From Escherichia phage JEP8: a stretch of 64,000 bases of DNA. The stretch lies in the sequence record MT764208.1. One strand, written 5' to 3'. Below are positions 13,573 to 62,064 of the stretch, in pieces. Below the pieces are notes generated by a model, which was not told the DNA's origin, ran no database searches, and saw only the letters and a list, made by a program, of their open reading frames with translations. Both the position numbers and the translations under genes were made by a program. Every line of letters starts with the position of its first letter. Position 1 is the first letter of the stretch.

Positions 13573-13580
13573 CTGCTTTT

Positions 13581-14078: not shown

Positions 14079-14085
14079 CTACTTT

Positions 14086-14304
14086 TTACTTGTTGTATTC
14101 ATTCCACCATTGGGTGAGCTTATCAATTATTTTTGTGTTTCTATCCAACTTCTCCCACCGTTTTCTAGGGTTTATCAACCGGAATAGGTAAGGTGTACTT
14201 GTTAAGTGAATTTGGTCAATGTAGTGATTGATGTACTGCTTTTCGATTCTAAGTTTCATCTTTTTACGATGAAAATATGCAATGACTTGTTCTTCTGTTT
14301 CCAT
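14086..14304 (-). CDS. hypothetical small protein (72 aa)
   Basis: ORF with promoter cassette 14329-14357. Confidence 0.45.
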   Translation of the reverse strand: METEEQVIAYFHRKKMKLRIEKQYINHYIDQIHLTSTPYLFRLINPRKRWEKLDRNTKIIDKLTQWWNEYNK

Positions 14305-14328
14305 ATGTTCCTCCGTTTCGATGTGTGT

Positions 14329-14357
14329 ATTATGCTATGGCAAGATCAGATTGTCAA
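14329..14357 (-). promoter_or_regulatory. early promoter TTGACA-N17-CATAAT
   Basis: drives 14086..14304. Confidence 0.55.
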
Positions 14358-14365
14358 CACCCAAT

Positions 14366-14395
14366 AACAAAAAAGTCGCCATTATGGGCGACTTT
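14366..14395 (-). terminator. intrinsic terminator after HAD-like gene
   Basis: hairpin AAGTCGCC-N5-GGCGACTT followed by TTTTT. Confidence 0.6.
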
Positions 14396-14404
14396 GAACA
14401 AACA

Positions 14405-14881
14405 TTAATCATGACCGTGATTTGCAATATCCGCTCGCGTCTTATCTTTGTGATTTCCTACGTCAAAGACACGATAACCATTTTCACGCAAAACTTTAAT
14501 CACTTCTGGGTTATCCTCAAAGACTCCGACAACTTCATCTTTATCAAAGGATTTAATTACCTCTAATTTGATGTGATAGTCTTTACGGGAATCGGTACGG
14601 CCTCTCATAAAGATTTTATCAAAACACACCCCGTTAGAAATTAACCAATCAATTGTTTCCATGTAAGCATGTGAACTTCGTCCGGTGAGGATGTAAATCA
14701 AATGCCCGTTGTCGGAAAGAGCATTAATAACACGAATTACATCGTAAATGGGGGAATCTCCCCCACATGCCTTGTTATATTCGATCCATGACTCGACTTT
14801 ATCAAGATTTTCGGTTGGCATCTTTGCTAGTCGATGTGTTGGATCTGTGATCGTAAAATCTAAATCGACAAAATATATCAT
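14405..14881 (-). CDS. HAD-superfamily phosphatase-like protein
   Basis: N-terminal DxDxT motif (FVDLDFTIT), ILTGRS, EDNPE; terminator hairpin downstream. Confidence 0.55.
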   Translation of the reverse strand: MIYFVDLDFTITDPTHRLAKMPTENLDKVESWIEYNKACGGDSPIYDVIRVINALSDNGHLIYILTGRSSHAYMETIDWLISNGVCFDKIFMRGRTDSRKDYHIKLEVIKSFDKDEVVGVFEDNPEVIKVLRENGYRVFDVGNHKDKTRADIANHGHD

Positions 14882-16038: not shown

Positions 16039-16053
16039 TAATTCACCTCACTA

Positions 16054-16221
16054 TCACTTTTTAACACAAAAGAACTTAGTATTTCTGTTAACTTCGCTAT
16101 CCTGCTGCAATTCCTGCACAGCTTCAAAACAATTTTGATATGATGAAAACTCTACGCTGGTAACAGTTCCTTTATTATATACGCCTACGCTAACGGAAAG
16201 CAATAACCATATTGTAGCCAT
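16054..16221 (-). CDS. hypothetical 55-aa protein with hydrophobic N-terminus (MATIWLLLSVSVGVY...)
   Basis: hand-translated; paralog of adjacent ORF; TAATG coupling. Confidence 0.4.
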   Translation of the reverse strand: MATIWLLLSVSVGVYNKGTVTSVEFSSYQNCFEAVQELQQDSEVNRNTKFFCVKK

Positions 16222-16394
16222 TAGTTCACCTTTTGTTTTTCAACGCAATATAGATTCATAAAGCGTTTATTGTCTTCGCGGATAATCTCGCGAGCTTTAA
16301 CGAAATCCTGCTTTGTTGCAAATTCAATGCTTGACATATTTCCGTAATTATACATTGAATTGCTGATTGCAATCAATAACCATACAGTAGCCAT
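16221..16394 (-). CDS. hypothetical 57-aa protein with hydrophobic N-terminus (MATVWLLIAISNSMY...)
   Basis: hand-translated; tandem paralog of 16054..16221. Confidence 0.4.
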   Translation of the reverse strand: MATVWLLIAISNSMYNYGNMSSIEFATKQDFVKAREIIREDNKRFMNLYCVEKQKVN

Positions 16395-21467: not shown

Positions 21468-21495
21468 ATTATACACTATTGCGTTACGCTGTCAA
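21468..21495 (-). promoter_or_regulatory. early promoter TTGACA-N16-TATAAT
   Basis: drives 21107..21436. Confidence 0.55.
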
Positions 21496-23112
21496 CTCTT
21501 TTTCAAAAGTTTTTACGATATACATGATAGTGCTCAATTCAGACGGCGCTACTGTTTCTGTGTAGCCATCCGGCATATCTTCTTTTGAGATATAGGAAGT
21601 TTTACCTTTCATCGCTTCCTTGATCTTGTTCTCTAAGTCTAAGATCTTTTGACCGTCTTGTAAAGTCAATTCATAAAAGATCTCGTGGTTGAATTTGGAA
21701 AGTCGAGATTGACCTCCAATTCGTTCTTTTGTTGTTCTATTGGTTATTCCAAATTTAACGCCAACGAATATTTTTTCTTTTATTAGTTTTTGAATATACA
21801 ATACTCCTTTTTTTAAGGTATTATATCCATATTGTGCGCATTTAGGACAACGAGTTCCTTTCTGAAAGTTTGTTATTGTCGGTGTAAATTCATGGCCTTC
21901 ACTACACACCAAATTTAACTTTGTAGACACACCGTTCCATTCTCCAATAAATCCATTAAATATGATATTTTCTTTTTCGAAAATTGGTTTAAGTCTTTCA
22001 AGATATTCTTCTTTTGATAATGCATAATTATTTGCACATTTAGGACAACGAGTTCCATTCTGAAAACTGGATATGATAGGAGTGAAATTGTGGCCTTCAC
22101 AACACACCAAATCCAATTTTGTTACGTTACCTTTCCACTCACCAACGATTCCATTACAGGTTATATTTTCTTTAATAAATATCGGTGCTAATTTTTCGAA
22201 ATATTCTTCCTTTGGAATCAATTTACGTTCTCTTAATTTAAGAGCTTTACATTTCGGACAGCGGCGACCTTGTTGAAAAACTGCTATGCTCGGGGTGTAA
22301 TTGTGTTTTTCATTACACACCAAATTCAGCCTAGTTCTGCTACCTTTCCACTCACCAACGATTCCATTACAGGTTATATTTTCTTCAACGAAGATTGGTT
22401 TTAATCTTTTAAAATATTCTTCTTTTGATATTTTTCTACTGTTTCTCCAGTTGATAATACCGCAGGTCGAACACCTATTACCGGATTGAAAACCGTTTAC
22501 AGTCGGTGTAAATTTATGGCCTTCACTACACAATAAATTCATTTTTGTTGTGCTTCCGTTCCATTCTCCAATAAATCCATTAAATACGATATTTTCTTTT
22601 TCGAAAATTGGTTTAAGTCTTTCAAGATATTCTTCTTTTGATAGTAATTTCAATTCTCTTAATTTAAGAGCTTTACATTTAGGACAACGACTTCCGACCT
22701 GAAATGCTGTTATCGTCGGAGTAAATTCATGATCCTCACAACATGTTAAGTTTAGTTTTGTGTGCACGCCTTTCCATTCTCCGACGAATCCATTAAACTT
22801 TATATTTTCCTCAATAAAGATTGGTTTAAGTTTTTTATAATATTCTTCTTTTGATAGGGCATAATTATTTGCGCATCTAGAGCATCGTTTACCTTTTTGA
22901 AAATCTGATATTCTTGGTGTAAATTCATGTCCTTCACAACACACCAAACCCAATTTTGTTACGTTACCTTTCCACTCACCAACAAATCCATTAAATACGA
23001 TATTTTCTTTTTCGAAAATTGGTTTAAGTCTTTCGTAATATTCCAATGGGCTAATCGAGTTATAATTTTTCTTAACCCATTCAATCTCATGCGCCTTACG
23101 TACCAACATCAT
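21484..23112 (-). CDS. six-repeat Cys/His-rich protein with C-terminal T5orf172/GIY-YIG-like domain
   Basis: six ~70-aa tandem units (EEY.E.LKPIF..ENI.FNG..GEW.G...KLNL.C.EGH.FTP.I..FQ.G.RC..C) then GVLYIQKL...VGVKFGITNRTTKERI; start trimmed to ATG 23112. Confidence 0.6.
   Translation of the reverse strand: MMLVRKAHEIEWVKKNYNSISPLEYYERLKPIFEKENIVFNGFVGEWKGNVTKLGLVCCEGHEFTPRISDFQKGKRCSRCANNYALSKEEYYKKLKPIFIEENIKFNGFVGEWKGVHTKLNLTCCEDHEFTPTITAFQVGSRCPKCKALKLRELKLLSKEEYLERLKPIFEKENIVFNGFIGEWNGSTTKMNLLCSEGHKFTPTVNGFQSGNRCSTCGIINWRNSRKISKEEYFKRLKPIFVEENITCNGIVGEWKGSRTRLNLVCNEKHNYTPSIAVFQQGRRCPKCKALKLRERKLIPKEEYFEKLAPIFIKENITCNGIVGEWKGNVTKLDLVCCEGHNFTPIISSFQNGTRCPKCANNYALSKEEYLERLKPIFEKENIIFNGFIGEWNGVSTKLNLVCSEGHEFTPTITNFQKGTRCPKCAQYGYNTLKKGVLYIQKLIKEKIFVGVKFGITNRTTKERIGGQSRLSKFNHEIFYELTLQDGQKILDLENKIKEAMKGKTSYISKEDMPDGYTETVAPSELSTIMYIVKTFEKELTA
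21800..23055 (-). repeat. six tandem ~210-bp coding repeats inside the 542-aa gene
   Basis: repeat units evident in protein and DNA (recurring tttccactcaccaacgattccattacaggttatattttc-type segments). Confidence 0.7.
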
Positions 23113-23139
23113 TTTATCCTCCGTTGTTTCGATGTGTGC

Positions 23140-23167
23140 ATTATACATTACATCATCAGCATGTCAA
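23140..23167 (-). promoter_or_regulatory. early promoter TTGACA-N16-TATAAT
   Basis: drives the 542-aa repeat-protein gene. Confidence 0.55.
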
Positions 23168-33972: not shown

Positions 33973-36741
33973 ATGGCAGATTTAAGCAGAATCCAATTTA
34001 AACGTACTAGCACTAAAGGCCGTCGACCTGATGCTGGTACGATGAATCCGGGGGAATTGGCAATCAACCTTGCGGATCAATATCTTCTTACTAAAAATGA
34101 TTCCGGTGCTATTATCAATTTAAGTTGTCCTCCGGTTTATGACCGCGATGTTACAATGGCAGGTAAGGTTAAAGGTAATAATTATATCTTAAGTAAAACC
34201 GCTAACTATCTGGAAGATCAGACAGCGCGAGATCTTAACTACTTTGGTGCTTTCCGTACCAATGGTCTTGATGGTTTTCTCGAACTCACGCTAAACGTTC
34301 CTCATTCTTCTGGTGTTCAGCATGGTCGAGGATTTACTTTCCAGTATGGACACACTGGATCGCGTGTAGAAACTTATGGCTATAATAAAGAAGGTCAAAA
34401 AGCATTTAGCTATAAAATGTATCATGAAGGTGATAAACCAACTCCAGGAGAATTGAACGTTTATAGCAAACAAGAAGTTGACCGTATGTTTGTTAAGAAC
34501 GTTAAACTTGCTACATCTCCTAGTGATATCGTTGAAGGCTATTTTAAATTAGCAACTGCAATGATTCCACAAAACGGTCTTAGCGTATTTTTCCGTATTC
34601 ATGGTGGTAACGGATATAACGTTACTGCATACGATCAAGTTGATATTGTAGAAATTGTTATTCGCAGTGGAAATGGTCGCCCTAAAGGTGTTAACGTTAT
34701 TGCATATCGCCGAAATACAAACAAATCATTTGATGTTTTGGCTGTTAATACTTCTGGTGATAACTATGATATCTATGTGAAATATCAGCGTTACACTGAT
34801 AACGTTATTGTTGAATTTGGTAAAAGTGTTGGTGTTAATCTGGTAGTTCATGACGTTCCAGATTTTGTTGCTGATCGTCCTGCTGGCGATAATGTTATTG
34901 GCGGTCGCGCGGTAACTCTTTTTAATACTGAAAATAAACGTGGTGTGTTAAGTTTTGATGATAACACACAAAACAGCTATGACATTGTTCACTTGAGTAA
35001 TGATAGGGGTACAGGACGAAAATATATTCGTAAATTCCGTAGCAACTATAATGAAATGATCTGGCATGAGACGGTTCAAGGTGCTACTTATCGTCTGGCT
35101 ACTGGTGCAACTGATGTTCAGGATATTCTAACCGTTGAATCTGTTAGCTCAATTTCTGGAACTCATAAAGGTAATATTACTTCTGGTCGTATGCTGTTAA
35201 ATGGTGGTAGTAATGTTATTACCTTGCGGCGTCCTGCTGGTCAATCCAACCATATTGCGTTTCAAGATAATCGTACTGGAGATATTACCCGTCAAGGATG
35301 GATCGGTTATGCCAATGCTAATACTAACGTTTTTGAATGGTATAGTGATGTAGGTGGCAGTTCTATTCGTCAACATATCGACGGACAGATCGAATTTCAG
35401 ACAGGTAGCATGAAGCGAGTTTATACTAACGGACAATTCATTTCATTATATGCCGATGGCTTCCGTACTGTATATGGTAACTATGGTTCATGGTGGCGAA
35501 ATGACGGTAGTAACGTTTATCTGATGAGCACAAAATCAGGCGACACTATGGGTCCGTGGAATACCTTTAGGCCGTTCATCTATAGCCTAGCCAATGGTAA
35601 CGTTACATTGGGGGGTAGTGATGCTGGCAACCATTTAATGCGTCTCAATAATGAAAGTAAACGAGTTGAAGTGAACGCAACCACACATCTTGGAAGCAGA
35701 CTGTATTGGGAACGTAACGACGAAGGATCGAAATCTGTATTCTTTGTTAAATCTTGGGGTAATGAAACTCGCGCTCAAGTGTGGGAACTTGCAGACGAAA
35801 CAAGCTATCATCTATATTCTCAGCGTGATTCTAACGGATCGATTCAATTTCGTGTTGCTGGTAGTTTGGAAACTGGAGGCCGCGCCCAGATTAATGGCGA
35901 TTTGGTCGTTACTAATGTTCTTCGTACAAATAACCAAATACAGATTTATAGAGATAACAACAAAGAGATCTGGTTTAAAGATGCTAATGGTACTAACCGT
36001 GGTGTTATCTGGGGAGATGGTGGCGGCAAAATGAGATTGCGTAACTATTCTGGTGGAGAATATGACCATGTGTTCGAAGCTGGTATGATTCGCCTTGAGC
36101 GTGGTTACGCCAATGGACAAGGTGCTGGGTTGATTCGCGGAGAAGTACAAGGTGGAGCATGGTCTGAATGGAGAACTCGCGCTGCTGGCTTATTGGTTGA
36201 CTGTCCAAATGCTCAAACTTCCGCATATAACGTATGGAAAGCGACCAAATGGGGTTTAGACCACATCGCGGCAATGGGTGTTCATGTTCCTAACGGTAAT
36301 GTTGGTAACTCTATTGCGCGTCTGCATGTTGGTGGCACTAACTTTGACTTTAACGCCTCCGGTGATTTCCAGGCAGGTCGTAACGGTAATTTTAACGATG
36401 TTTATATTCGCTCTGATGCTCGCCTTAAAATCAATAAGGAAGAGTATAAAGAGAATGCCACCGATAAAGTTAATCGCTTGACTGTGTACACCTACGATAA
36501 GGTTAAGTCTTTGACGGACCGCACTGTTATCGCTCATGAAGTTGGTATTATTGCTCAGGATCTTGAAAAAGAATTGCCGGAAGCAGTAACAACTTCTAAG
36601 ATCGGCGATCCTGATAAGCCAGAAGAGATCTTAACAATTTCTAACTCTGCTGTCAACGCTCTTTTAATTAAGGCGTTTCAGGAAATGAGCGAAGAATTGA
36701 AAGCCGTTAAAGCTGAACTAGCGGAACTTAAAAAGAATTAA
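33973..36741 (+). CDS. 37: long tail fibre distal subunit / receptor-binding protein (gp37) with C-terminal intramolecular chaperone domain
   Basis: 922 aa in gene 37 position; C-terminal ~110 aa (SDARLKINKEEYKE...IAQDLEKELPEAV...coiled coil) resembles the auto-cleaving S74-type chaperone of T5 pb1 / endosialidases. Confidence 0.85.
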   Translation: MADLSRIQFKRTSTKGRRPDAGTMNPGELAINLADQYLLTKNDSGAIINLSCPPVYDRDVTMAGKVKGNNYILSKTANYLEDQTARDLNYFGAFRTNGLDGFLELTLNVPHSSGVQHGRGFTFQYGHTGSRVETYGYNKEGQKAFSYKMYHEGDKPTPGELNVYSKQEVDRMFVKNVKLATSPSDIVEGYFKLATAMIPQNGLSVFFRIHGGNGYNVTAYDQVDIVEIVIRSGNGRPKGVNVIAYRRNTNKSFDVLAVNTSGDNYDIYVKYQRYTDNVIVEFGKSVGVNLVVHDVPDFVADRPAGDNVIGGRAVTLFNTENKRGVLSFDDNTQNSYDIVHLSNDRGTGRKYIRKFRSNYNEMIWHETVQGATYRLATGATDVQDILTVESVSSISGTHKGNITSGRMLLNGGSNVITLRRPAGQSNHIAFQDNRTGDITRQGWIGYANANTNVFEWYSDVGGSSIRQHIDGQIEFQTGSMKRVYTNGQFISLYADGFRTVYGNYGSWWRNDGSNVYLMSTKSGDTMGPWNTFRPFIYSLANGNVTLGGSDAGNHLMRLNNESKRVEVNATTHLGSRLYWERNDEGSKSVFFVKSWGNETRAQVWELADETSYHLYSQRDSNGSIQFRVAGSLETGGRAQINGDLVVTNVLRTNNQIQIYRDNNKEIWFKDANGTNRGVIWGDGGGKMRLRNYSGGEYDHVFEAGMIRLERGYANGQGAGLIRGEVQGGAWSEWRTRAAGLLVDCPNAQTSAYNVWKATKWGLDHIAAMGVHVPNGNVGNSIARLHVGGTNFDFNASGDFQAGRNGNFNDVYIRSDARLKINKEEYKENATDKVNRLTVYTYDKVKSLTDRTVIAHEVGIIAQDLEKELPEAVTTSKIGDPDKPEEILTISNSAVNALLIKAFQEMSEELKAVKAELAELKKN

Positions 36742-36781: not shown

Positions 36782-37021
36782 ATGGTCTATAATATCGTCA
36801 TTGGCGCTTTGTCTAATTTCGGAATGAAATTATTGTCAAAGTTAATTAGTGAAAAGATGCTCACTAAAATTTTCTTCTATTGCGCTCGTCGTCTTGCGGC
36901 TTATACCAATACGCCAATTGATGATCGTTTTGTGGAAGAACTTTATAAGGAGTTTAATAAAGATCAGTCAGAAGATAGTAACGAGCAAGATAAATCTAGT
37001 GATAGTCAACTACCTAAATAA
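36782..37021 (+). CDS. hypothetical 79-aa protein in the position T4 uses for gp38
   Basis: AAGGAG RBS 8 nt upstream of ATG; amphipathic N-terminus, acidic Ser-rich C-terminus. Confidence 0.5.
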   Translation: MVYNIVIGALSNFGMKLLSKLISEKMLTKIFFYCARRLAAYTNTPIDDRFVEELYKEFNKDQSEDSNEQDKSSDSQLPK

Positions 37022-37054: not shown

Positions 37055-37711
37055 ATGCAAGTTTCTGAAAAAGGGAAAGACTTTGCTATCTCAAATGTCC
37101 TGCGCGCTATTTTCACAACTAAAAGCACGGAGTTGCTCGTACTTCGTGTTTTTGCTGCCGTCGTGTTGTCTATATTGGCATTTGTCGTTTATAGTAAAAA
37201 CGAGTTATTTGCGCTTTATAAAGAGACTCGTTATGAGACTTATGCTCACATTCTCCAGGTAGAGAAAGACCGCAATTTTGATAATGCAGCACAGGAGCAG
37301 TTACAGATAGTTCATGTGTCGGCTGATGCCGATTTTTCTGCTGTTTTTAGTTTTCGTCCGAAAAACCTAAACTATTTTGTTGATTTGGTGGCATATGAAG
37401 GAAAGCTACCACATACAATCGATGAAAAGAATTTAGGCGGATTCCCTATCAATAAAACGAGTGAAGAATATCGTAGACATCTTTTAGGTAAATCATATTT
37501 TACCGATAAAGATTTCCAGTATATTCCATCAAGAGAAAAGAAATTAGAGAATATCGATATAGGTTTCATGTATTCTTGTCCTATATTCAATCTCGATAAT
37601 GTCTATTCTGGTAGTATCGCCATTTCATGGAAGAATAAACCGGATATTGACATTGAGAATTTAGATACTCTTTGCAATCAATCTGCCAGAATCCTCGGAA
37701 GGATTAGATAA
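37055..37711 (+). CDS. t: holin (T4 gpt homolog)
   Basis: 218 aa as in T4 T; N-terminal TM segment; blocks LEQLQIVH.S.EADFSAV.SFRPKNLNYFVD..AYEGKLP, MYSCP.FNLDN.Y.G, ARILGR match T4 holin. Confidence 0.92.
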   Translation: MQVSEKGKDFAISNVLRAIFTTKSTELLVLRVFAAVVLSILAFVVYSKNELFALYKETRYETYAHILQVEKDRNFDNAAQEQLQIVHVSADADFSAVFSFRPKNLNYFVDLVAYEGKLPHTIDEKNLGGFPINKTSEEYRRHLLGKSYFTDKDFQYIPSREKKLENIDIGFMYSCPIFNLDNVYSGSIAISWKNKPDIDIENLDTLCNQSARILGRIR

Positions 37712-37714
37712 CTT

Positions 37715-37750
37715 AAAGGGGAAGCCTTTCGGCCTCCCCTTCTTTTTATT
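37715..37750 (+). terminator. putative intrinsic terminator after holin (convergent junction)
   Basis: GC-rich hairpin (AAGGGGAAGCC/GGCCTCCCCTT) followed by CTTTTTATT. Confidence 0.55.
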
Positions 37751-37994
37751 GGCGCATAGACGCGCCTGAATCACATTTTGACGCTGTATGATGAAAACAG
37801 GTAGCGTACCAGTCATCGGCTTGTTTGTCTTCGTCAGAAAACGCGTAATTTCGTTGTACGCCGTTTTCTACTTTGACCAGTGCAATAGCTGTTTCTGGAA
37901 GATCAATCAATCGGACAAAATCACCATCTTCCCACTCTACACGAGCAATATCATAGCCCATCTCAAAGTATACAATCGCTTGTTCTAATTTCAT
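37746..37994 (-). CDS. hypothetical protein (82 aa)
   Basis: first minus-strand ORF after the tail-fibre operon. Confidence 0.45.
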   Translation of the reverse strand: MKLEQAIVYFEMGYDIARVEWEDGDFVRLIDLPETAIALVKVENGVQRNYAFSDEDKQADDWYATCFHHTASKCDSGASMRQ

Positions 37995-38320
37995 TCTGGA
38001 AACTTCCCGTAAACATTCTCTGCCAACTTACGTGCATCTTTTACAATATCTTTCATGTAATGACTATAATTTTTAGCTAGATCAATGATGCAATCAACAA
38101 AGAAGTAATAGCGTCGCAGTGCGACCAGCTCAACATCTTCAAGATGACCATTTTCTCCAATCGCTGAAATATGTTTAAATTCCTTTCGGATCGCGTCCAT
38201 CGCTACATTAACTTCTTTTATAATATCTTTCGTATTATATGCACCTCGACTAATCAAAATTTTGGTTAGGTCTTCTGCTTTTTCGTGAAAGTTGTCAATT
38301 TCAAACTCGATCATAATCAC
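37991..38320 (-). CDS. hypothetical protein (109 aa), tandem paralog A
   Basis: C-terminus ...ENVYGKFPE and overall pattern shared with 38429..38761. Confidence 0.5.
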   Translation of the reverse strand: MIMIEFEIDNFHEKAEDLTKILISRGAYNTKDIIKEVNVAMDAIRKEFKHISAIGENGHLEDVELVALRRYYFFVDCIIDLAKNYSHYMKDIVKDARKLAENVYGKFPE

Positions 38321-38428
38321 CTCTCATAATTTCACGCTGTTGTTTCAACATTTTTTCGTGGTTTGCTAATTCTATACCTTGTAATAGCATAACCAGTGCA
38401 ATTTTCAATGATTCATCATCTTTCATAA

Positions 38429-38761
38429 TCAAAATTTACCGAAAATATTCTCTGTCATAATTCTTGCTTCGTCGATTATTTTCGTCATGTTCATGGTGTA
38501 GTTATGATCATTTAGTGCTTTAATAACAACGAGCAAGGAATCTAAAAACACTCGATACCGGGTATATTCTACGCTATTTGTGAATACCGATGTTTTCTCT
38601 ACTTTATCGATCAGATAGCCTAAAGCCGATAGCGCCTCGTTTACTTCCCGTGTTACTTTATCGGCGCTAAACAACACCGGATAAAGACGCGGTGTGATTA
38701 ACCGCGCTGCCTCTTTCAATTCGGTCGCTTTCCATGATTCATATTTGTCAAAATTAAACAT
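38429..38761 (-). CDS. hypothetical protein (110 aa), tandem paralog B
   Basis: C-terminus ...ENIFGKF; paralog of 37991..38320. Confidence 0.5.
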   Translation of the reverse strand: MFNFDKYESWKATELKEAARLITPRLYPVLFSADKVTREVNEALSALGYLIDKVEKTSVFTNSVEYTRYRVFLDSLLVVIKALNDHNYTMNMTKIIDEARIMTENIFGKF

Positions 38762-38773
38762 TGTATAATGTCC

Positions 38774-39106
38774 TTACAGATGAAAACCTGTTACAATTAC
38801 CGCATCGATCATACCGCTAGGAATAAACGGTTCACCCTCTTTTATTTCAACTTTGAATTGATGCCATTTCGCCAATACTTCTTCCGGTACACCCAGCGAT
38901 TCGGCGTCTGCTTTAGTTTCATCCATAATCCAACTAGGCTGCATGAGAGCATAGTTTACATAGTCCATTTCTGGGGTCATGTCATCAATGTTAATATATT
39001 TGCAGTTGACGCGTTTCAGAATTTCAAATTCTTTATTGTCAACCTGTACCATGTATAATTCAGTAGTTTCTGGAATCACTTCCCACACAATCAGTACATT
39101 TTTCAT
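38774..39106 (-). CDS. hypothetical protein (110 aa)
   Basis: ORF in accessory cluster. Confidence 0.45.
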   Translation of the reverse strand: MKNVLIVWEVIPETTELYMVQVDNKEFEILKRVNCKYINIDDMTPEMDYVNYALMQPSWIMDETKADAESLGVPEEVLAKWHQFKVEIKEGEPFIPSGMIDAVIVTGFHL

Positions 39107-39114
39107 AGTTCACC

Positions 39115-39483
39115 TCACTTAACAAAGATTTTCTTTAATGCTTTCAGGATCGTTGCTTCCGGCGCTTCTTCCGGTGGAGGAAGCAATTCTACCACTTCCT
39201 CTTCCAACTCGATATAGTCTACCAGATATTCTACATAGAATGCAAGTGCTTCCATGAAATTAGATGCTACATCCGATTCGCCACACGCGCCCACATGCAT
39301 TGTATAAACATCACTGCGATCAAGTTTGTGGATGCTTCCCAGATAGTTTCGGTTATACCAGACTTCCCACACTTTCAGCTTTCCGGTTTTGGTTGATGTT
39401 TTATAATCGGTTTCGTAATGATGCAATTGACGTTGCAGATCATTGATAATAACACATTTTTCGTAATTGTTTTGAATTTCCAT
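39115..39483 (-). CDS. hypothetical protein (122 aa)
   Basis: ORF in accessory cluster. Confidence 0.45.
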   Translation of the reverse strand: MEIQNNYEKCVIINDLQRQLHHYETDYKTSTKTGKLKVWEVWYNRNYLGSIHKLDRSDVYTMHVGACGESDVASNFMEALAFYVEYLVDYIELEEEVVELLPPPEEAPEATILKALKKIFVK

Positions 39484-39493
39484 GATGTAATCC

Positions 39494-39685
39494 TCACTTA
39501 TCGTTAAGAAGTTCTAAAACTTTCTGTCGTACTTTGTCAATATTAGTTGATTCAAAAACTGTACGGTATCCCCAGCTTTGACCGTATGAGCGGTTGCAAT
39601 CTCCATATCCCCATTGTTCAACCTGATAGTATTCAAGGAATGGGTGCTGCCGAACTATGATACCATCGCGATTAAAAATTACCAT
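39494..39685 (-). CDS. hypothetical protein (63 aa)
   Basis: ORF in accessory cluster. Confidence 0.4.
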   Translation of the reverse strand: MVIFNRDGIIVRQHPFLEYYQVEQWGYGDCNRSYGQSWGYRTVFESTNIDKVRQKVLELLNDK

Positions 39686-39708
39686 AATATAATCCTCACG
39701 TCAACAAC

Positions 39709-39996
39709 TTATTTTCGGTTGTGGTCACGATATGTTTTAAAATATCCCTCGTACCACGGTAAAACATCTGGATTTTTACCACTATACAGACCTTTAACCA
39801 TCATGTCAATAAGGCCATCCGGTGTTTGATAGTTTCCAGCTTTTATAAGCTCTCTGATTAAAATCTCTCTGTATATGTCTTTCGGATCTTCGTAATCAAC
39901 TTGTATTGTGGTTGTGGTCTCATTCAATTTGGTTTCTGGAGTATCTCGCATTGCATCCCACCAATCTTTTGTGACCTTCATGTTATTGAATTGCAT
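39709..39996 (-). CDS. hypothetical protein (95 aa)
   Basis: ORF in accessory cluster. Confidence 0.45.
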   Translation of the reverse strand: MQFNNMKVTKDWWDAMRDTPETKLNETTTTIQVDYEDPKDIYREILIRELIKAGNYQTPDGLIDMMVKGLYSGKNPDVLPWYEGYFKTYRDHNRK

Positions 39997-40007
39997 AATT
40001 TAACCTC

Positions 40008-40766
40008 TTACTTGCAAACGTATTGGTCTACATCAATTGCTCCACCGAATGTAGGATGACGTTTTTCAAATCGAATAGTTCCGTCGTTTGGTTCGAAAAC
40101 GGAGTATTCATATAGATCTTTCTTGCCAACATTCTTATAAAACCCGCCTTTAGTCATAACGGTTTCTTGTACGTTTGCTTTGTGTACGTTGTATTCATCA
40201 ATGTATACAAAATCAACCATCTTCCCATTTTTAATTGTTACTTTAAGATCACCCGGTTGATTTCCATATTTGGCATACAGTGGCGCTTCTTTAATTTTTG
40301 TGGAAATTCCATCTTTCATACTCCACTCATAACGAACGGTGCATTGATAGGTAAAAGTTTCGACCTTCGGTTCTTCTACCACTTTTGCTTCCTGTTTCTG
40401 TTGTTCTTCTTCAACCTTTGCAGAAGTCTCTGAATCGCTTTCTGACGAGGTTTCTTCTTTAGGTAATACATTCATCAAGTTTTGGATTTGAGCGTTATAT
40501 ACAGCCTCCAGTGGCTGAATCTGCCCGATATTGATCATTGTATCACGAACAGTTTTATTCCAGTTTCGTTGCTCTTGTTTCAGAGACGGATCAATCTTAA
40601 CAGCCTTAACATACACTTCATGAAGTTTAGAGTCCAGTGCGGAGATAGACTCATTAGCACAAATAAACTTCTCTGATTTGGTAGTAGCTTTAGCGCAATC
40701 AAAGGACGCAGCATTAGCACCGAAAGCAGTAGCGGAAAGAACGATAGCAGCGATAATGTTTTTCAT
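40008..40766 (-). CDS. secreted DUF1311 / LprI-like (lysozyme-inhibitor-like) domain protein
   Basis: signal peptide MKNIIAAIVLSATAFGANA; then DCAKATTKSEKFICANESISALDSKLHEVY...QRNWNKTVRD typical of DUF1311; extra ~130-aa C-terminal domain. Confidence 0.55.
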   Translation of the reverse strand: MKNIIAAIVLSATAFGANAASFDCAKATTKSEKFICANESISALDSKLHEVYVKAVKIDPSLKQEQRNWNKTVRDTMINIGQIQPLEAVYNAQIQNLMNVLPKEETSSESDSETSAKVEEEQQKQEAKVVEEPKVETFTYQCTVRYEWSMKDGISTKIKEAPLYAKYGNQPGDLKVTIKNGKMVDFVYIDEYNVHKANVQETVMTKGGFYKNVGKKDLYEYSVFEPNDGTIRFEKRHPTFGGAIDVDQYVCK

Positions 40767-40800
40767 AATATATTCCTCAATGTTTTGTCTTGATGGGAGT

Positions 40801-40829
40801 ATCTTACTACTCCCTTAATCCTGTGTCAA
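40801..40829 (-). promoter_or_regulatory. early promoter TTGACA-N17-TAAGAT (GGGAGTAGTAAGATACTCCC type)
   Basis: upstream of the DUF1311 gene. Confidence 0.5.
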
Positions 40830-40836
40830 CTAATTT

Positions 40837-40992
40837 TTAAATTTCTTCTACAGTAAAGTCTTCAATGTTGTTGTGCTCGGCGAACGTTGCCAGACCAGCA
40901 TTCCATGCATCATCCTCAGAGAAGAATACACCGTAACGTTCATATCCTTTAGCGCCTTCAAATTTAACCATTAATTTGTGAGTATGTTTCAT
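40837..40992 (-). CDS. hypothetical 51-aa protein
   Basis: track ORF trimmed (MLTGDRRSPIL is promoter-cassette read-through); start MKHTHKLMV... Confidence 0.4.
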   Translation of the reverse strand: MKHTHKLMVKFEGAKGYERYGVFFSEDDAWNAGLATFAEHNNIEDFTVEEI

Positions 40993-41022
40993 TTTGATTC
41001 TCCTTCGTTGTCTTGATGAGTT

Positions 41023-41051
41023 TAGTATAGGGGATCGCCGATCCCCTGTCA
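41023..41051 (-). promoter_or_regulatory. early promoter TTGACA-N17-TATACT with palindromic spacer GGGGATCGGCGATCCCC
   Basis: drives 40837..40992. Confidence 0.6.
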
Positions 41052-41061
41052 ACAACTATTT

Positions 41062-41274
41062 TTAATTTTTACCCGCTCGTGCATTAATACGCATTTTCTG
41101 CATAGCCATGATCTGGCTTACTGCTTCTTCTTTACGTTTTTGCGTGATAACGTGACCAGATTCCGCAAACTCTCCCGCAACTTCTTCTACAATCTCGCGA
41201 ACTTGAGAACGTCCAAAGATGCGGTTTCCTTCGTAGCTCATAAATTCAGTCACTACTTGCTCAATAGATTTCAT
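41062..41274 (-). CDS. hypothetical 70-aa protein
   Basis: trimmed to ATG downstream of promoter 41304-41332. Confidence 0.4.
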   Translation of the reverse strand: MKSIEQVVTEFMSYEGNRIFGRSQVREIVEEVAGEFAESGHVITQKRKEEAVSQIMAMQKMRINARAGKN

Positions 41275-41303
41275 GTGATTCTCCTTTCGTTTGGTATGGG
41301 AGT

Positions 41304-41332
41304 ATAATACTACTCCCATTTCTTTACGTCAA
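41304..41332 (-). promoter_or_regulatory. early promoter TTGACG-N17-TATTAT
   Basis: drives 41062..41274. Confidence 0.5.
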
Positions 41333-41335
41333 CAA

Positions 41336-41497
41336 CTATTTTAAATTATTTTCGACCTTCACCCATTCCGCGTATTCTTGCGCGGCTACTTTCGGATTTA
41401 AGCCGTCTTCGTACATTGCATCAAGTAATTCTTTGTCGGTGGGCTTATACCCTAGATAAGCCTCCACCTGATTTTTCCAAATTTTATACCAGTTCAT
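41336..41497 (-). CDS. hypothetical 53-aa protein
   Basis: trimmed to internal ATG (MNWYKIWK...). Confidence 0.35.
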   Translation of the reverse strand: MNWYKIWKNQVEAYLGYKPTDKELLDAMYEDGLNPKVAAQEYAEWVKVENNLK

Positions 41498-41501
41498 ATT
41501 A

Positions 41502-41774
41502 TCACCAATCAAGAGCGCGTGTCTCTGCGTCTTCCCATGCTTGATCCATAACAGCCTTGAAAACATATTCTAGAGTATCATCTTTAGAGAATCCGAAGAC
41601 TTTAGACGGAATATCTTCGATTGCTACTCCCGCAACTTCTGCATTACGCGCTTGGCAATAATGCAACTCTAAGTTATCGAGATAGCGACCGCCTAATTTC
41701 TCCATATCATCCCAGCATTTCCAGTAACCTACTTTATCTGCAATTGCCAACACTTTGCTGTTTTCGTTGCACAT
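41502..41774 (-). CDS. hypothetical 90-aa protein
   Basis: trimmed to ATG downstream of promoter 41806-41834; length equals T4 AsiA but no sequence resemblance seen. Confidence 0.45.
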   Translation of the reverse strand: MCNENSKVLAIADKVGYWKCWDDMEKLGGRYLDNLELHYCQARNAEVAGVAIEDIPSKVFGFSKDDTLEYVFKAVMDQAWEDAETRALDW

Positions 41775-41805
41775 CTTTGATTCTCCTTTTGTTTGGTATG
41801 TGTGT

Positions 41806-41834
41806 ATTATGCAATGTTGGATTCTGTAAGTCAA
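41806..41834 (-). promoter_or_regulatory. early promoter TTGACT-N17-CATAAT
   Basis: drives 41502..41774. Confidence 0.5.
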
Positions 41835-41845
41835 CAACTTTTTAA

Positions 41846-41875
41846 AATAAAAAAGCCGACCACAAGGATCGGCTT
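41846..41875 (-). terminator. intrinsic terminator after 41885..42280
   Basis: hairpin AGCCGATCC-TTGTGG-TCGGCT followed by T5ATTTT. Confidence 0.6.
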
Positions 41876-41884
41876 AATAATCAG

Positions 41885-42280
41885 TTACTTACTAAATTTC
41901 TTTTTGGCTTCGTCTACCGCATGAGATGCCAGTACCGCAGCCGCATGTGCACTTTTATCTGTGTTGCAGAGAACGCCCAGATAAACATCACGCCAAAGTT
42001 TAATCATCTCGTAGATCATATCAATATCATTTTCTTGTTTGTTGGCGATGCTATTCGTCGTTATCTGGTAAGGTAACGGCTTGATCTGTACTGGTTCCGC
42101 CATCGGGCTAATCGGCTTCGGATCAGTCATAATAGGTGCTGTTGTGGGTGGTGTTTTCCATACGCCATTATTCCACGGTTTAATCGTTGTATCGTAAAGT
42201 TTATAAGGATTTTTGTCTGGGTCAACCATCCAGGCATGATGAGTACCCAAACCATTTGAAGTAATGCGTCGTTCAGTCAT
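41885..42280 (-). CDS. hypothetical protein (131 aa)
   Basis: ORF followed by terminator hairpin 41854-41874. Confidence 0.45.
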   Translation of the reverse strand: MTERRITSNGLGTHHAWMVDPDKNPYKLYDTTIKPWNNGVWKTPPTTAPIMTDPKPISPMAEPVQIKPLPYQITTNSIANKQENDIDMIYEMIKLWRDVYLGVLCNTDKSAHAAAVLASHAVDEAKKKFSK

Positions 42281-42482
42281 ACTTTCCCTCCAAAAATTCT
42301 TTCATCAAATAGTCTATCGTTGCTCTGTGTTCTGGTGTGTTTGTGATCTCTGCTAACTTATTCAGAGATTCAATAGTGATCCGGTTGGCTTCTTCCATAG
42401 TCTCAACGACCATTGGCGCAATCTTTTTATTGTTGTACACGAAAGCCACATAACCGCCTTCTGGATATTCTTTCATAATCAA
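42273..42482 (-). CDS. hypothetical protein (69 aa)
   Basis: ORF immediately downstream of gene 52. Confidence 0.45.
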   Translation of the reverse strand: MIMKEYPEGGYVAFVYNNKKIAPMVVETMEEANRITIESLNKLAEITNTPEHRATIDYLMKEFLEGKYD

Positions 42483-43843
42483 CCCTTCTTAAGTTCTTTA
42501 AGATCTTTCTTATATTCCTTCATTGCGGTCGTCTTTGTCCAATACTCATATTCACTATGATGTTTATCGGCATCTTTGACCAGTCGACCATACTCTTCTT
42601 GAGTAACGCTATACAATGGCATAGAAACTAGCTTATCGGCGTATGGACGCAGTTTTTCATGTCCATTGATGGATTGCATTACCTCGGCCTTTTTCTTGCC
42701 CTGTAGCTCGATTTCGCCCTTAATTACGCGATCGATAAATTCGGCTTTAGCCATTGCATAATTGTATGCTTCCAGTGTTTCCGCTTGCATCAATTCAATG
42801 CGTTTATCTACATAGCCTAATCGGATTTCGACGAATCGACGGATCAGATCGCTCGCTTTTTCGAATACTTCTACTAAACCACGTTCGTTAACTACTACGA
42901 TATTCTGGGCTACTAACTGCGTTAGTTTAAAATCCTTCATGATTTGCTCATGTCGAGCGGATTCATCTTCGCTTTTGAAATAATCGCGTTTCAGTGTTAC
43001 TTCAAATCTGAATCCGTCCTTAGAGCAACGGTCATTATACGATACAATCAGATCTTTTTCTTCCAGTGCATCCAGTACCGCTACATATTCTTCACGGTCG
43101 AACTTATAAGGAACTTCTGATATTGTCAGTTTAGTCTTGCCGTTTAGTTCATATGTACCCTCAAGAATCACACCATCGCGATCATCTCGCGGGATAACTT
43201 TACCCTTGAATTTCGGGAATTGAACACTAGGTTCTTTATCCAGTTTTCCGGCAAGTGCTAGCTCTGTGCATTCAATAAGGCTTTCCAGTGAATGCGGTAA
43301 AATGTCAGTTTTATACCCTGTAGCAATACCACTAATACCATTAGCTAGTACCATTGGCACAACTGGCAAGTAGAACGCTGGCGGGATGTGTTCCAGATCT
43401 TCGTGCTTAGGTGCGCAATTCATATCTTTATAGATTTTAAAGAAGTTTTCATGCACACGAGCAAAGATATAACGTGCCGCACCTGCTTTCTGGACTAAAC
43501 GCGATCCGAAGTTACCTTGACCGTCAAGCAGTGGAGTATTATTGCTCCATGTATTCGCCATGAGTGATCCGGCTTCTACGGCATTAGTTTCCCCGTGGTG
43601 ATAACCCAACTCAGCAACACCAGATCCAATATCTGCCATCTTACGGAATTTCTTACGGTCGCCTTTACTCTTTTGAAGTGCGCACTCCATAACAAAGCGT
43701 TGCACTGGTTTAAGCCCATCCACTAATTGAGGAATCCCGCGTTCCTCGGCAGAATAGATCGCATATTCCTTAGCTTCATTATGTACAATGCTTTCAAGGC
43801 TGCGGTAAGTAAATGTGTTTACAATTTGACTAATTTTATCCAT
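42479..43843 (-). CDS. 52: DNA topoisomerase II medium subunit (T4 gp52 homolog, GyrA-like)
   Basis: DGLKPVQRFV, GYHHGE, LLDGQGNFGSR, ARYIFARV blocks as in T4 gp52; track GTG start trimmed to ATG 43843 after GAGGTGA. Confidence 0.9.
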   Translation of the reverse strand: MDKISQIVNTFTYRSLESIVHNEAKEYAIYSAEERGIPQLVDGLKPVQRFVMECALQKSKGDRKKFRKMADIGSGVAELGYHHGETNAVEAGSLMANTWSNNTPLLDGQGNFGSRLVQKAGAARYIFARVHENFFKIYKDMNCAPKHEDLEHIPPAFYLPVVPMVLANGISGIATGYKTDILPHSLESLIECTELALAGKLDKEPSVQFPKFKGKVIPRDDRDGVILEGTYELNGKTKLTISEVPYKFDREEYVAVLDALEEKDLIVSYNDRCSKDGFRFEVTLKRDYFKSEDESARHEQIMKDFKLTQLVAQNIVVVNERGLVEVFEKASDLIRRFVEIRLGYVDKRIELMQAETLEAYNYAMAKAEFIDRVIKGEIELQGKKKAEVMQSINGHEKLRPYADKLVSMPLYSVTQEEYGRLVKDADKHHSEYEYWTKTTAMKEYKKDLKELKKG

Positions 43844-43850
43844 CTTCACC

Positions 43851-44213
43851 TCATACACGCTTACAAATCACATTCTTTACTTTATCAGATTTATCAGCCC
43901 AATCCAATAGCCATTTTAACGGAAGGATTGAAACAATAAACGGGGCAGCAATCAAAGCAAACATGATACACCTGATAATCAGGAAAACGCAAGTGACAAA
44001 ACTAGCGATAGTGATCCCGACAAAACAAAATACCATAGAAAACAGAGTAATGATATAGAAAGGCCAGAATACCCACTCCCGCATCTTAACTCCTTTGTAT
44101 TCTCTGAATTGCTTAAAATCTACAAACAACTCTCGGATAGACGCGTACAGGACCGAAAAATCATCTTTCATTGCTCTGAATGAGCAATCTTCTATTTTAG
44201 AATGACCTAGCAT
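43851..44213 (-). CDS. hypothetical membrane protein (120 aa)
   Basis: two or three predicted TM segments. Confidence 0.45.
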   Translation of the reverse strand: MLGHSKIEDCSFRAMKDDFSVLYASIRELFVDFKQFREYKGVKMREWVFWPFYIITLFSMVFCFVGITIASFVTCVFLIIRCIMFALIAAPFIVSILPLKWLLDWADKSDKVKNVICKRV

Positions 44214-51125: not shown

Positions 51126-51869
51126 TCATTCTCCGTCAGTTCGTTTCAGGTATTCCAACGCTGCATATAGTCTTTGCGGATCGTCTTTGAACATTCCTAA
51201 TCCGGCGTTACATTTTCCACAAAGAACACCTCTTATCTTACCAGTCTTATGATTATGGTCAAGATGTTTCCACTTTTGGCGTTTTCTCTCGCCGCATCGT
51301 TCATTTATGAATTTTACACCGCATATCTCGCAATTGTCAACTCTGTCTAAAATTTCTAACGCTTCTCGTTTTGTTATTTTTATACCATCTTCGGCGTGGT
51401 GATATGGTCTATCTAGTTCTCGTTCTCGTTTCTCAAACAATCGACACTCATCAGAACAATACTTTTGAGATGCGTTTATTGCAACAAATGGTTTACCACA
51501 TTTAGCGCATTCTCGTTCAATCTTTATGTTTTGTGCCTGATCCAACGATGCGCAACGAGAACAGCAAAATTTATGATAGCCTCTAGAGTATGTATGATAA
51601 TTTACAGGATTTGGGCATCTTGCACATTTAACTATTCCTGTTATTCCGTGGCGCAATCTATAAACAGCCTCGTTATATGGTTGTTGATTTCTGAGACCTC
51701 CATTACAGAACTTAAACTCATTCCTTATAATCTGAAATTCCGCAGGATACAATTTTTCCATTTCTGGAATTTTATTTTCTTTAAAAAGATTTGAGTTTAG
51801 TCTATTTCCGCTTTTCGCCTCCAGAACATCAACAATAAACTTTTTGATGTTCACTTTTTCTCTCTCCAA
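51126..51869 (-). CDS. endonuclease VII-family (HNH-like) protein, likely free-standing homing endonuclease
   Basis: multiple C-x2-C zinc ribbons and C-terminal HLDHNHKTGKIRGVLCGKCNAGLGMF. Confidence 0.6.
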   Translation of the reverse strand: MEREKVNIKKFIVDVLEAKSGNRLNSNLFKENKIPEMEKLYPAEFQIIRNEFKFCNGGLRNQQPYNEAVYRLRHGITGIVKCARCPNPVNYHTYSRGYHKFCCSRCASLDQAQNIKIERECAKCGKPFVAINASQKYCSDECRLFEKRERELDRPYHHAEDGIKITKREALEILDRVDNCEICGVKFINERCGERKRQKWKHLDHNHKTGKIRGVLCGKCNAGLGMFKDDPQRLYAALEYLKRTDGE

Positions 51870-61261: not shown

Positions 61262-61290
61262 ATTTTACTACTTTAATTATTCTATGTCAA
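61262..61290 (-). promoter_or_regulatory. promoter TTGACA-N17-TAAAAT upstream of gene 40 position ORF
   Basis: consensus -35, 17-bp spacing. Confidence 0.5.
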
Positions 61291-62026
61291 CAAATTTCCA
61301 ATTTGGAAAGTCTGGACACATACAACGACGGCGAACGGTTCCGCGCTCGTTTCCTAGTACCTTAGATACTTCCGATACAGATTTATAGATCACACCATCA
61401 ACAGATACAGCCTTTCGGTCTTTTCTGTTTTGTTTCTTGCTCTTTTCTCGTCTGGCTTCGACATTCTCCGAATCATTCCATTGTCTCTTTGCTGTCTCGC
61501 GGGAAGATATTGTCTTTTGTTCTTTAACAATATCTTTAACAAGTTGTTCTTGTCCTGTTATCTTCGCCCACACATTAACAGACTGAATAGCATTAGCCTC
61601 ACTCATTCCCCAACGTTTACCGGATATATTCTTACGACGAACGCGTAGAAATTCGTTAAAGACTTCTTCGCATTGGTGCATATAATCACGAAAACCATAT
61701 TTCTTAGCCCATGCCTCTTTAATTGCACCAGACATATTTTCGGCAATACGTCTACGCACCCATGCATACTCCTTATTATTGCGACCGTGACTGGTCATAC
61801 ACATCATACGTGCAGCCATAATAAGACCAACATTCTTAGGATACATTTTAGCTAACAATAAGTGAGCGGTAAAGTGTTCCTCCGGTGTCAATGGAACGAG
61901 ATTTTCCTGTTCATCCGTGCCGCCCATACAACGTGGTTTAACGTGATGGATCTCTATGTATCCGGTCGGCTTCTCTCGGTTTCTTGCTCGTTCAATCAAT
62001 CTTTCGTAATGTGTTTTGTAGTTCAT
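61277..62026 (-). CDS. HNH homing-endonuclease-like protein (free-standing)
   Basis: YIEIHHVKPRCMGGTDEQENLVPLTPEEHFTAH HNH motif plus C-terminal DNA-binding-like module (SVDGVIYKSVSEVSKVLG); start ambiguous (ATG 62038 or 62026). Confidence 0.65.
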   Translation of the reverse strand: MNYKTHYERLIERARNREKPTGYIEIHHVKPRCMGGTDEQENLVPLTPEEHFTAHLLLAKMYPKNVGLIMAARMMCMTSHGRNNKEYAWVRRRIAENMSGAIKEAWAKKYGFRDYMHQCEEVFNEFLRVRRKNISGKRWGMSEANAIQSVNVWAKITGQEQLVKDIVKEQKTISSRETAKRQWNDSENVEARREKSKKQNRKDRKAVSVDGVIYKSVSEVSKVLGNERGTVRRRCMCPDFPNWKFVDIE

Positions 62027-62039
62027 GTGATCCTCCATA

Positions 62040-62064
62040 TGAAAAAGGGGCATAAAGCCCCTTA
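62040..62064 (-). terminator. intrinsic terminator after uvsX
   Basis: hairpin GGGGC-UUUAU-GCCCC followed by TTTTTC; overlaps the annotated start region of the HNH gene. Confidence 0.55.

Follow-up and report, generated by a model that had tools for sequence, protein, structure and literature searches.

In bacteriophage T4, the interval between the holin gene t and gene 52 contains asiA, asiA.1, arn, arn.1–4, motA and motA.1. For the T4-like phage RB49, Desplats et al. 2002 reportedly described, from an analysis of transcripts, promoters of the early and late classes only. The passages of Nolan et al. 2006 that deal with these factors (PMC1524935) give MotA only for T4, RB69 and 44RR, and AsiA orthologs for RB69, 44RR, Aeh1 and KVP40; they also relate that the searches of that study and of Desplats et al. 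2002 found neither a motA ortholog nor a middle-promoter consensus in RB49. That a T4-type phage can lack MotA, AsiA and a middle mode of transcription has been known from the literature since 2002–2006. In RB49 and phi1, Arbiol et al. 2010 (PMC2839356) defined the promoter-early stem-loop (PeSL) cassette, which they showed at other loci to combine a very strong sigma-70 promoter with a terminator/attenuator and to be the means by which genes are shuffled in the variable regions; in RB49-type phages these regions were described as rich in PeSLs. Here we analysed the interval between t and gene 52 (t–52) of Escherichia phage JEP8, at positions 37746–42482 of a stretch of 64,000 nucleotides (nt) from record MT764208.1 (the window, to which all coordinates refer unless stated otherwise). 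We read it as the t–52 variable ('hyperplastic') region of an RB49-type T4-like coliphage of the genus Krischvirus, and give this explanation as a whole a probability of roughly 85%.

The initial annotation, made from the sequence alone, had placed about 15 small open reading frames (ORFs) between the holin gene and gene 52, and had named asiA, arn and motA as the content of the T4 counterpart. Both statements hold: the ORF list contains 15 minus-strand ORFs in a row, from 42482 down to 37746, Pfam confirmed both flanking genes, and the three genes are seen in the T4 record. The cluster shares its strand with the early genes 52 and rIIB, and the holin and tail-fibre genes are convergent to it. 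Over its full length of ~4.8 kb the interval was 97–98% identical at the DNA level to more than 50 Krischvirus genomes, among them RB49, G2248, TB34 and phi1-like phages, and the whole window was colinear with RB49 116477–164018 followed by RB49 1–16383. RB49 carries the same 15 genes in the same order, annotated as RB49p255–RB49p268 and all hypothetical, and all 15 ORFs matched PHROG families (expect values, E, of 1e-19 to 1e-154), every one of them labelled 'unknown function'. Taken together, the PHROG matches, the conservation in Krischvirus and the RB49 annotation indicate that the 15 ORFs are real genes and not chance ORFs. The described t–52 regions of RB49, phi1, JSE and GEC-3S (Arbiol et al. 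2010, PMC2839356; Comeau et al. 2014, PMC4122927) have the same genes in the same order with 97–98% DNA identity, and JEP8 differs from this group at the level of alleles only. ORFan 263.1 of phi1, assigned by Arbiol et al. to a variable region, lies by its numbering between ORF263 and ORF264, that is, in the t–52 interval.

No match to AsiA, MotA or Arn was obtained with Pfam at E≤1 among all 15 ORFs. All nine T4 t–52 interval proteins were also used as tblastn queries against the window and the complete RB49 genome, and nothing below E 0.009 was found in either. The best values were 0.71 (window) and 0.96 (RB49) for AsiA, 0.23 for MotA over the window and the whole of RB49, and 0.031 for Arn, the anti-McrBC DNA mimic, the last at an unrelated RB49 locus. 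Hidden Markov models (HMMs) of our own, built from IMG/VR relatives with identities of 48–100% (AsiA) and 51–99% (MotA), were run with all filters off on every six-frame segment of at least 30 residues in the window and RB49, and gave best E values of 0.58 and 0.22 respectively. MotA-box promoters, a search for which the initial annotation had proposed, were scored as TGCTTtA 11–13 bp upstream of a −10 element, with expected counts from shuffles. In positions 1–50 kb of T4, the positive control, 16 such composites were counted against 4.1±1.9 expected, a roughly four-fold excess. The counts were at chance level in the homologous 1–50 kb of RB49 (1 against 2.2±1.7), in the whole RB49 genome (5 against 7.1±2.3) and in the window (3 against 2.5±1.5). 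The lack of tblastn and HMM matches in the window and the whole of RB49, together with MotA boxes at chance level, thus argues that AsiA, MotA and MotA-box promoters are absent from this lineage and have not been moved. The impression that no ORF resembles AsiA or MotA is borne out by Pfam, tblastn and the purpose-built HMMs, which found no divergent copy among the 15 ORFs. Of the two possibilities left by the initial annotation, absence stands, and relocation falls with the matchless six-frame search of the whole of RB49. Its remark that middle-mode transcription must work differently here was right, yet is established knowledge (PMC1524935).

The genes of the interval and its two boundaries are as follows.

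42479–43858, minus strand: gene 52, topoisomerase II medium subunit (Pfam DNA_topoisoIV, E 2.3e-68; RB49p269), the upstream boundary of the cluster
42273–42476, minus strand: ORF1, 67 amino acids (aa), acidic (phrog_15105, E 3e-44), 79–97% identical among Krischvirus; ATG start, with the mechanical TTG start at 42482
41885–42280, minus strand: ORF2, 131 aa, with a proline-rich middle (phrog_15644, E 1e-92), 92–100% conserved
41502–41774, minus strand: ORF3, 90 aa, acidic (phrog_7287, E 2e-38), with an AAGGAG ribosome-binding site and then ATG
41336–41512, minus strand: ORF4, 58 aa (phrog_8655, E 1e-27); start uncertain, TTG at 41512 or ATG at 41497; the counterpart RB49p265 has 177 nt
41062–41274, minus strand: ORF5, 70 aa (phrog_14966, E 3e-49)
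40837–40992, minus strand: ORF6, 51 aa (phrog_19699, E 1e-40), absent from GEC-3S and from the metagenomic locus L034
40008–40766, minus strand: ORF7, 252 aa, secreted DUF1311 protein (Pfam LprI/PF07007)
39709–39996, minus strand: ORF8, 95 aa (phrog_15915), with two allelic types among Krischvirus
39494–39685, minus strand: ORF9, 63 aa (phrog_6957, E 3e-42)
39115–39483, minus strand: ORF10, 122 aa, homolog of the long form of T4 arn.4 (phmmer, two-sequence HMM)
38774–39106, minus strand: ORF11, 110 aa, very acidic with a net charge of −11 (phrog_4658, E 7e-40)
38429–38761, minus strand: ORF12, 110 aa, paralog A (phrog_9457, E 2e-43)
38301–38426, minus strand: ORF13, 41 aa (phrog_17009, E 1e-32)
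37991–38314, minus strand: ORF14, 107 aa, paralog B (phrog_9457, E 8e-57)
37746–37994, minus strand: ORF15, 82 aa, Tad2-like (DUF2829; Pfam PF11195)
37055–37711, plus strand: holin t (Pfam Phage_holin_T, E 4.5e-61), the downstream boundary, convergent with the cluster

For ORF1, 3, 4, 5, 6, 13 and 14, the starts that follow from the RB49 annotation make the genes shorter than in the mechanical ORF list.

Four intergenic gaps of the cluster carry a promoter and a stem-loop, which the initial annotation had overlooked. The predicted transcription signals of the interval are these.

41853–41875, minus strand: terminator hairpin with a T-run downstream of ORF2 (−12.7 kcal/mol, z score −3.9), annotated as a terminator in GEC-3S
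41806–41834, minus strand: sigma-70 promoter TTGACT-17-CATAAT before ORF3 (promoter scan), annotated as a promoter in GEC-3S
41296–41332, minus strand: PeSL cassette TTGACG-17-TATTAT with a 9-bp stem-loop overlapping the −10 box (−14.1 kcal/mol, z score −5.3)
41024–41052, minus strand: PeSL cassette TTGACA-17-TATACT with a GGGGATC/GATCCCC stem-loop in the spacer (−12.8 kcal/mol, z score −3.5)
40795–40829, minus strand: PeSL cassette TTGACA-17-TAAGAT with a GGGAGTA/TACTCCC stem-loop over the −10 box, before ORF7 (−11.9 kcal/mol, z score −4.7); a promoter is also annotated at this position in GEC-3S
39781–39809, minus strand: putative sigma-70-like match TTGACA-17-TATAGT inside ORF8 and upstream of ORF9, with 11 of 12 consensus positions
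37712–37745, both strands: probable bidirectional terminator hairpin (−23.2 kcal/mol on the minus strand, −16.8 kcal/mol on the plus strand)

The four gaps, with −35 boxes at 41834, 41332, 41052 and 40829, are built in near-identical order: an AT-rich stretch with the upstream stop codon, a −35 box within the motif (TAG)TTGTTGAC(A/G/T), a 17-nt spacer, a −10 box, a ribosome-binding site and ATG. The ribosome-binding site reads 'AAGGAGAATCA' in three of the four and 'GAGGAATA' ahead of ORF7, and the promoters scored 10–11 of the 12 sigma-70 consensus positions in the promoter scan. A stem-loop of −11.9 to −14.1 kcal/mol lies in the spacer or over the −10 box at three sites, and these three match the published PeSL layout in their sequence; at the fourth, before ORF3, the hairpin at 41853–41875 precedes the promoter, which we read as the upstream-stem-loop subclass of PeSL. 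The t–52 regions of the RB49 group have the same layout of sigma-70 promoter, stem-loop and ribosome-binding site. At the other end of the cluster, a GC hairpin with 12 perfectly paired bp fills the 34-nt gap between the stop codons of ORF15 and the holin gene, and the GEC-3S record has a terminator there on either strand; the hairpin probably parts early from late transcription. The late-promoter motif TATAAATA did not occur within the interval. Early expression by the host sigma-70 polymerase is thus well supported by sequence. We propose that transcription of the 15 genes would begin immediately upon infection, by host RNA polymerase that is still unmodified; some of it would continue from gene 52 into the cluster, and some would start at the cassettes. 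The stem-loops would damp the read-through, an effect that Arbiol et al. 2010 demonstrated on PeSLs of other loci.

The T4 interval between t and gene 52, with asiA, arn and motA, has the same flanking genes and orientation as that of JEP8, and the two share the arn.4 frame, in JEP8 as ORF10. This retained homolog had also escaped the initial annotation. A phmmer search with ORF10 found the T4 frame at L002:3131–3460 (minus strand) with E 4.8e-7, and an HMM of two sequences, ORF10 and its homolog in Citrobacter phage Merlin, found it with E 1.3e-10. The T4 frame follows closely on motA and has 110 open codons (12.8 kDa, 'Y16F'), of which 68 are annotated as arn.4, and the Merlin homolog (gp290) likewise lies directly downstream of motA. 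A precomputed match to PF26821 (Phage_T4_Y16F) exists for the ORF10 ortholog of the metagenomic locus L034. A tblastn search with the annotated 68-aa arn.4 missed ORF10 because the similarity sits in the unannotated upstream extension of the frame. That ORF10 and Merlin gp290 resemble this upstream part suggests that the start of T4 arn.4 may be mis-set, and the size of the full frame, 110 codons and 12.8 kDa, explains an old note in the RB49 annotation. The remaining T4 genes, asiA, asiA.1, arn, arn.1–3, motA and motA.1, have no counterpart in the JEP8 cluster; as judged from these comparisons, ORF10 is the sole gene kept from the T4 asiA–motA interval. Since the lineage is without AsiA, MotA and MotA-box promoters, the cluster is a different gene set and not a degenerate form of the T4 interval.

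ORF15, the last gene of the cluster, passed the Pfam Tad2-like family PF11195 (DUF2829) with 28.4 bits against a cut-off of 25 (E 2.4e-6, profile positions 1–71 of 73). Searches of PDB sequences with the single sequence and with a four-sequence profile gave no match, and there the link to Tad2 came from the fold search only. An AlphaFold 2 model from a four-sequence alignment had a mean predicted local distance difference test score (pLDDT) of 76.8 and showed a helix at residues 3–11, four strands, a helix at 54–58 and a fifth strand. This is the element order of SPO1 Tad2, with its N-terminal helix, beta strands and short helix before the last strand. In a Foldseek search of the PDB with the model, the best eight matches were all Tad2 (SPO1, Myroides), with probability 1.0 and template modelling scores of 0.54–0.62, and the matches that followed had E values at least ten times worse. 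The proteins are similar in size (82 aa against 89 aa), whereas ORF15 has an extra disordered C-terminal tail of 14 residues. ORF15 was 98–99% conserved in all Krischvirus loci compared, and its close relatives are very few: a phmmer search against 1.8 billion representatives gave eight matches, of which three long repeat proteins were dropped as spurious (one, P0027, is fibronectin-III-like). Which system a Tad2 protein inhibits differs from one homolog to the next, and Thoeris of types I, II and IV, CBASS and Pycsar are all among the targets (PMC12393519); because the family covers several ligands, that of ORF15 is not predictable. We read ORF15 as a Tad2-family protein that would most likely sequester a nucleotide immune signal of the Thoeris, CBASS or Pycsar type. 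The guess in the initial annotation that the small proteins are host-takeover or anti-defence factors thus finds concrete support for ORF15 only, and none for the other ORFs.

ORF7 had been called a secreted DUF1311 protein, and it indeed scored 26.7 bits against a cut-off of 22 for Pfam LprI/PF07007 and has the only hydrophobic segment in the cluster, at its N-terminus (MKNIIAAIVLSATAFGANA/AS, with an A-N-A signal-peptidase site). The predicted layout is a signal peptide (residues 1–19), a DUF1311/LprI helical domain (~24–100), an acidic disordered linker (104–132) and a beta-barrel (135–251), the last with pLDDT 80–92 in an AlphaFold model from 21 sequences. Among the homologs, residues 1–118 were near-invariant, and in the barrel only C142, G153 and C251 were invariant. 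The RB49-type barrel occurred in 46 phage isolates and other types in 12 (60–80% overall identity), and JSE shares residues 1–103 only. Distant proteins with a signal peptide and DUF1311 occur in Klebsiella and Aeromonas T4-like phages. The first ~375 nt of ORF7 were 94–96% identical to E. coli chromosomal genes, after which the similarity ended abruptly; among 5,426 complete E. coli genomes, 26 had this 5′ half, and the similarity broke off at nt 371, 379 or 408, whereas neither the 3′ half nor any other part of the cluster was found in any of them. The loci listed as sharing the 5′ half are 40008–40766 (minus strand) of the window, L032 8001–8795, L037 6001–6780 and L040 9001–9780. In the one genome inspected, E. 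coli DEC5A, the ORF7-like gene lies ~7 kb from a terminase gpA gene and beside a truncated hicB (hicAB), and a second copy has a Phage_pRha gene and an insertion sequence element in its neighbourhood. Given these neighbours, the idea that the copies are captures by the chromosome proper was revised, and we read them as lying in prophage remnants or ends. One E. coli homolog has a truncated copy of ORF8 behind it, which suggests exchange with a Krischvirus-like phage.

Among described proteins, LprI, ScwA and type VI secretion system (T6SS) immunity proteins such as Etsi4 are, like ORF7, secreted and have a DUF1311 helical domain with a cysteine pair, and LprI of Mycobacterium tuberculosis has, like ORF7, a second small beta-barrel domain. 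DUF1311 proteins have been implicated as periplasmic immunity proteins against cell-wall T6SS effectors. Lysozyme inhibition by M. tuberculosis LprI is due to its MliC domain, and Salmonella ScwA, in which DUF1311 is the only domain, regulates murein hydrolases but is no inhibitor of lysozyme (PMC7933661). ORF7 has no lipobox and so, unlike this comparison set, is not a lipoprotein. It further differs in its hypervariable barrel, which has no MliC sequence signature (no Pfam match to PF09864 on ORF7), and in being a gene of a virulent phage with a PeSL-type promoter. From these features, ORF7 is predicted to be exported to the periplasm, where it would most likely bind an envelope or peptidoglycan-hydrolase target. 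Two ideas on the variation of the barrel were rejected. It does not track the tail-fibre receptor-binding protein, as receptor masking would have it, since JEP8 combines an RB49-type ORF7 barrel with a GEC-3S-type gp37; nor does it track the phage's own tail lysozyme, because gp5 is near-invariant in the genus: of 59 Krischvirus records, 57 have a gp5 with ≥99% identity.

The other 12 ORFs (ORF1–6, 8, 9 and 11–14) are soluble, mostly acidic, lineage-restricted proteins without an assigned role. None had a Pfam match above threshold, and an NCBIfam run on ORF1–10 gave no match. The tandem paralog pair seen by the initial annotation at 37991–38320 and 38429–38761 was corroborated: ORF12 and ORF14 both belong to phrog_9457, with a BLASTP E value of 7e-8 over the C-terminal 43 residues and 29% identity over the full length. 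This family has no Pfam domain and was found only on contigs of Krischvirus size. Most ORFs were at least 93% identical in six other Krischvirus loci, with ORF1, ORF8 and the C-terminal half of ORF7 as the main exceptions; ORF3, ORF5 and ORF13 reach no more than 86–91% in some of them.

Several points weigh against our explanation. Conservation within Krischvirus is uneven: ORF1, ORF3, ORF5 and ORF13 drop to 79–91% in some loci, ORF12 and ORF14 are 69% and 47% identical in the metagenomic locus L034, and for each of ORF6, ORF9 and ORF13 there are one or two Krischvirus loci without the gene. Early timing and promoter use are deduced from sequence and from studies of other PeSLs. The Tad2 assignment of ORF15 combines a borderline Pfam score with a medium-confidence model from four sequences; identity to the solved Tad2 proteins is only 14–18%, and the model is without the helix in the beta2–beta3 loop that SPO1 Tad2 uses for dimer contacts. 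The ORF7 barrel matched only generic beta-barrels in fold, and one DUF1311 protein, ScwA, does not inhibit lysozyme. The AsiA and MotA HMMs are built from only four and six sequences, and a structural or functional analogue of either factor without sequence similarity is still conceivable. A diverged or non-homologous AsiA- or MotA-like factor hidden among the small ORFs would give JEP8 a cryptic middle mode; several ORFs resemble AsiA in being small, acidic and cytoplasmic, twelve of the 15 are without an assigned function, and Aeh1 and KVP40 keep AsiA without MotA, so partial systems exist. We nevertheless consider such a factor highly improbable, in view of the empty Pfam searches for AsiA, MotA_activ and MotCF at E≤1, the empty HMM and tblastn searches, MotA-box promoters that are not in excess, and the published RB49 searches without a motA ortholog or middle-promoter consensus, as related in PMC1524935. 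Because the window comprises 64 kb of JEP8, the genome-wide absence of AsiA and MotA rests on RB49, and the two genes could in principle have moved to the ~100 kb of JEP8 outside the window, which covers RB49 116477–164018 and 1–16383. However, the complete RB49 genome, 97% identical over the shared part, has neither a six-frame match nor such an annotation, which makes relocation the least credible of the alternatives.

A further proposal, compatible with the t–52 variable-region explanation, concerns ORF7 as a stand-in for Spackle, that is, a superinfection-exclusion protein or peptidoglycan-hydrolase inhibitor. Spackle is a helical protein. T4 Spackle (gp61.3) is an early periplasmic phage protein with a signal peptide, traits that ORF7 appears to share as judged from its sequence, although the two have no sequence similarity and differ in size (97 aa against a two-domain protein of 252 aa). 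No Spackle or Imm homolog was found in RB49 or the window: the best tblastn E values for Spackle were 0.02–0.05, inside the gene 41 helicase, and phmmer gave 0.26. With no sp or imm homolog, the place of Spackle is vacant in RB49 and JEP8. The combination of DUF1311 with a small disulfide-stapled barrel parallels DUF1311 plus MliC in M. tuberculosis LprI, and a role against T6SS effectors has been proposed for other DUF1311 proteins. The N-terminal half occurs in 26 E. coli chromosomes, in the inspected one beside prophage genes, a typical place for exclusion genes, and the barrel differs from strain to strain, which would fit an interface in an arms race. Against this stand the missing MliC match, a barrel type that does not co-vary with gp37 type, the near-invariance of gp5 and the inactivity of ScwA towards lysozyme. 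We regard the stand-in role as possible but doubtful, though it is our best guess for ORF7. Equally tentative is the wider suggestion that ORF7 may represent an undescribed class of exchangeable phage proteins of the periplasm, in which a constant export–DUF1311 module is joined through the acidic linker to a swappable, disulfide-stapled barrel and acts in superinfection exclusion or hydrolase blocking, filling the role of Spackle and Imm.

Elsewhere in the window, gp37 (33973–36741, plus strand) is a mosaic, 92% identical to GEC-3S and 60% to RB49, with a middle part 34% identical to RB49; it has the domains Gp34_trimer and Peptidase_S74, the latter a self-cleaving chaperone. Between gp37 and the holin gene, a 79-aa ORF at 36782–37021 (plus strand; RB49 'dc5', phrog_402) has an ortholog in the metagenomic locus L034 with a precomputed PF26925 (Phage_PM2_Gpl) match. 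Beside gene 32, a 554-aa ORF at 21484–23148 (minus strand) contains six CapR-homology/treble-clef zinc-finger repeats (Pfam CapR, E 9e-32); the segment ~21850–23107 has no DNA match in RB49, which annotates a different 'endonuclease' there. Two ORFs are probably homing endonucleases: a 247-aa ORF at 51126–51869 (minus strand) with an Endonuclease_7 domain (E 1.3e-16), in an insertion of ~800 bp relative to RB49 just upstream of gene 39, and a 258-aa ORF at 61277–62053 (minus strand) with an HNH-like motif and an I-TevI DNA-binding domain (E 1e-6), which fills an insertion of ~790 bp relative to RB49 between gene 40 and uvsX. The stretches 703–940 and 3961–4199, of ~240 nt and each 86% identical to the RB49 counterpart of the other, form by sequence a dispersed repeat within the alt-to-gene-30 variable region.

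The value of these results lies in the annotation of a region that over 50 deposited Krischvirus genomes still list as 'hypothetical'; some of these come from phages isolated for phage therapy. What the results add is the assignment of ORF15 to the Tad2 family, the link of ORF10 to T4 arn.4, and a modular ORF7 whose constant half is shared with E. coli chromosomes. ORF7 is a tractable candidate for studies of phage–phage exclusion in a lineage without Spackle and Imm, and the likely nucleotide sponge encoded by ORF15 could affect which defence-carrying E. coli strains Krischvirus phages kill.

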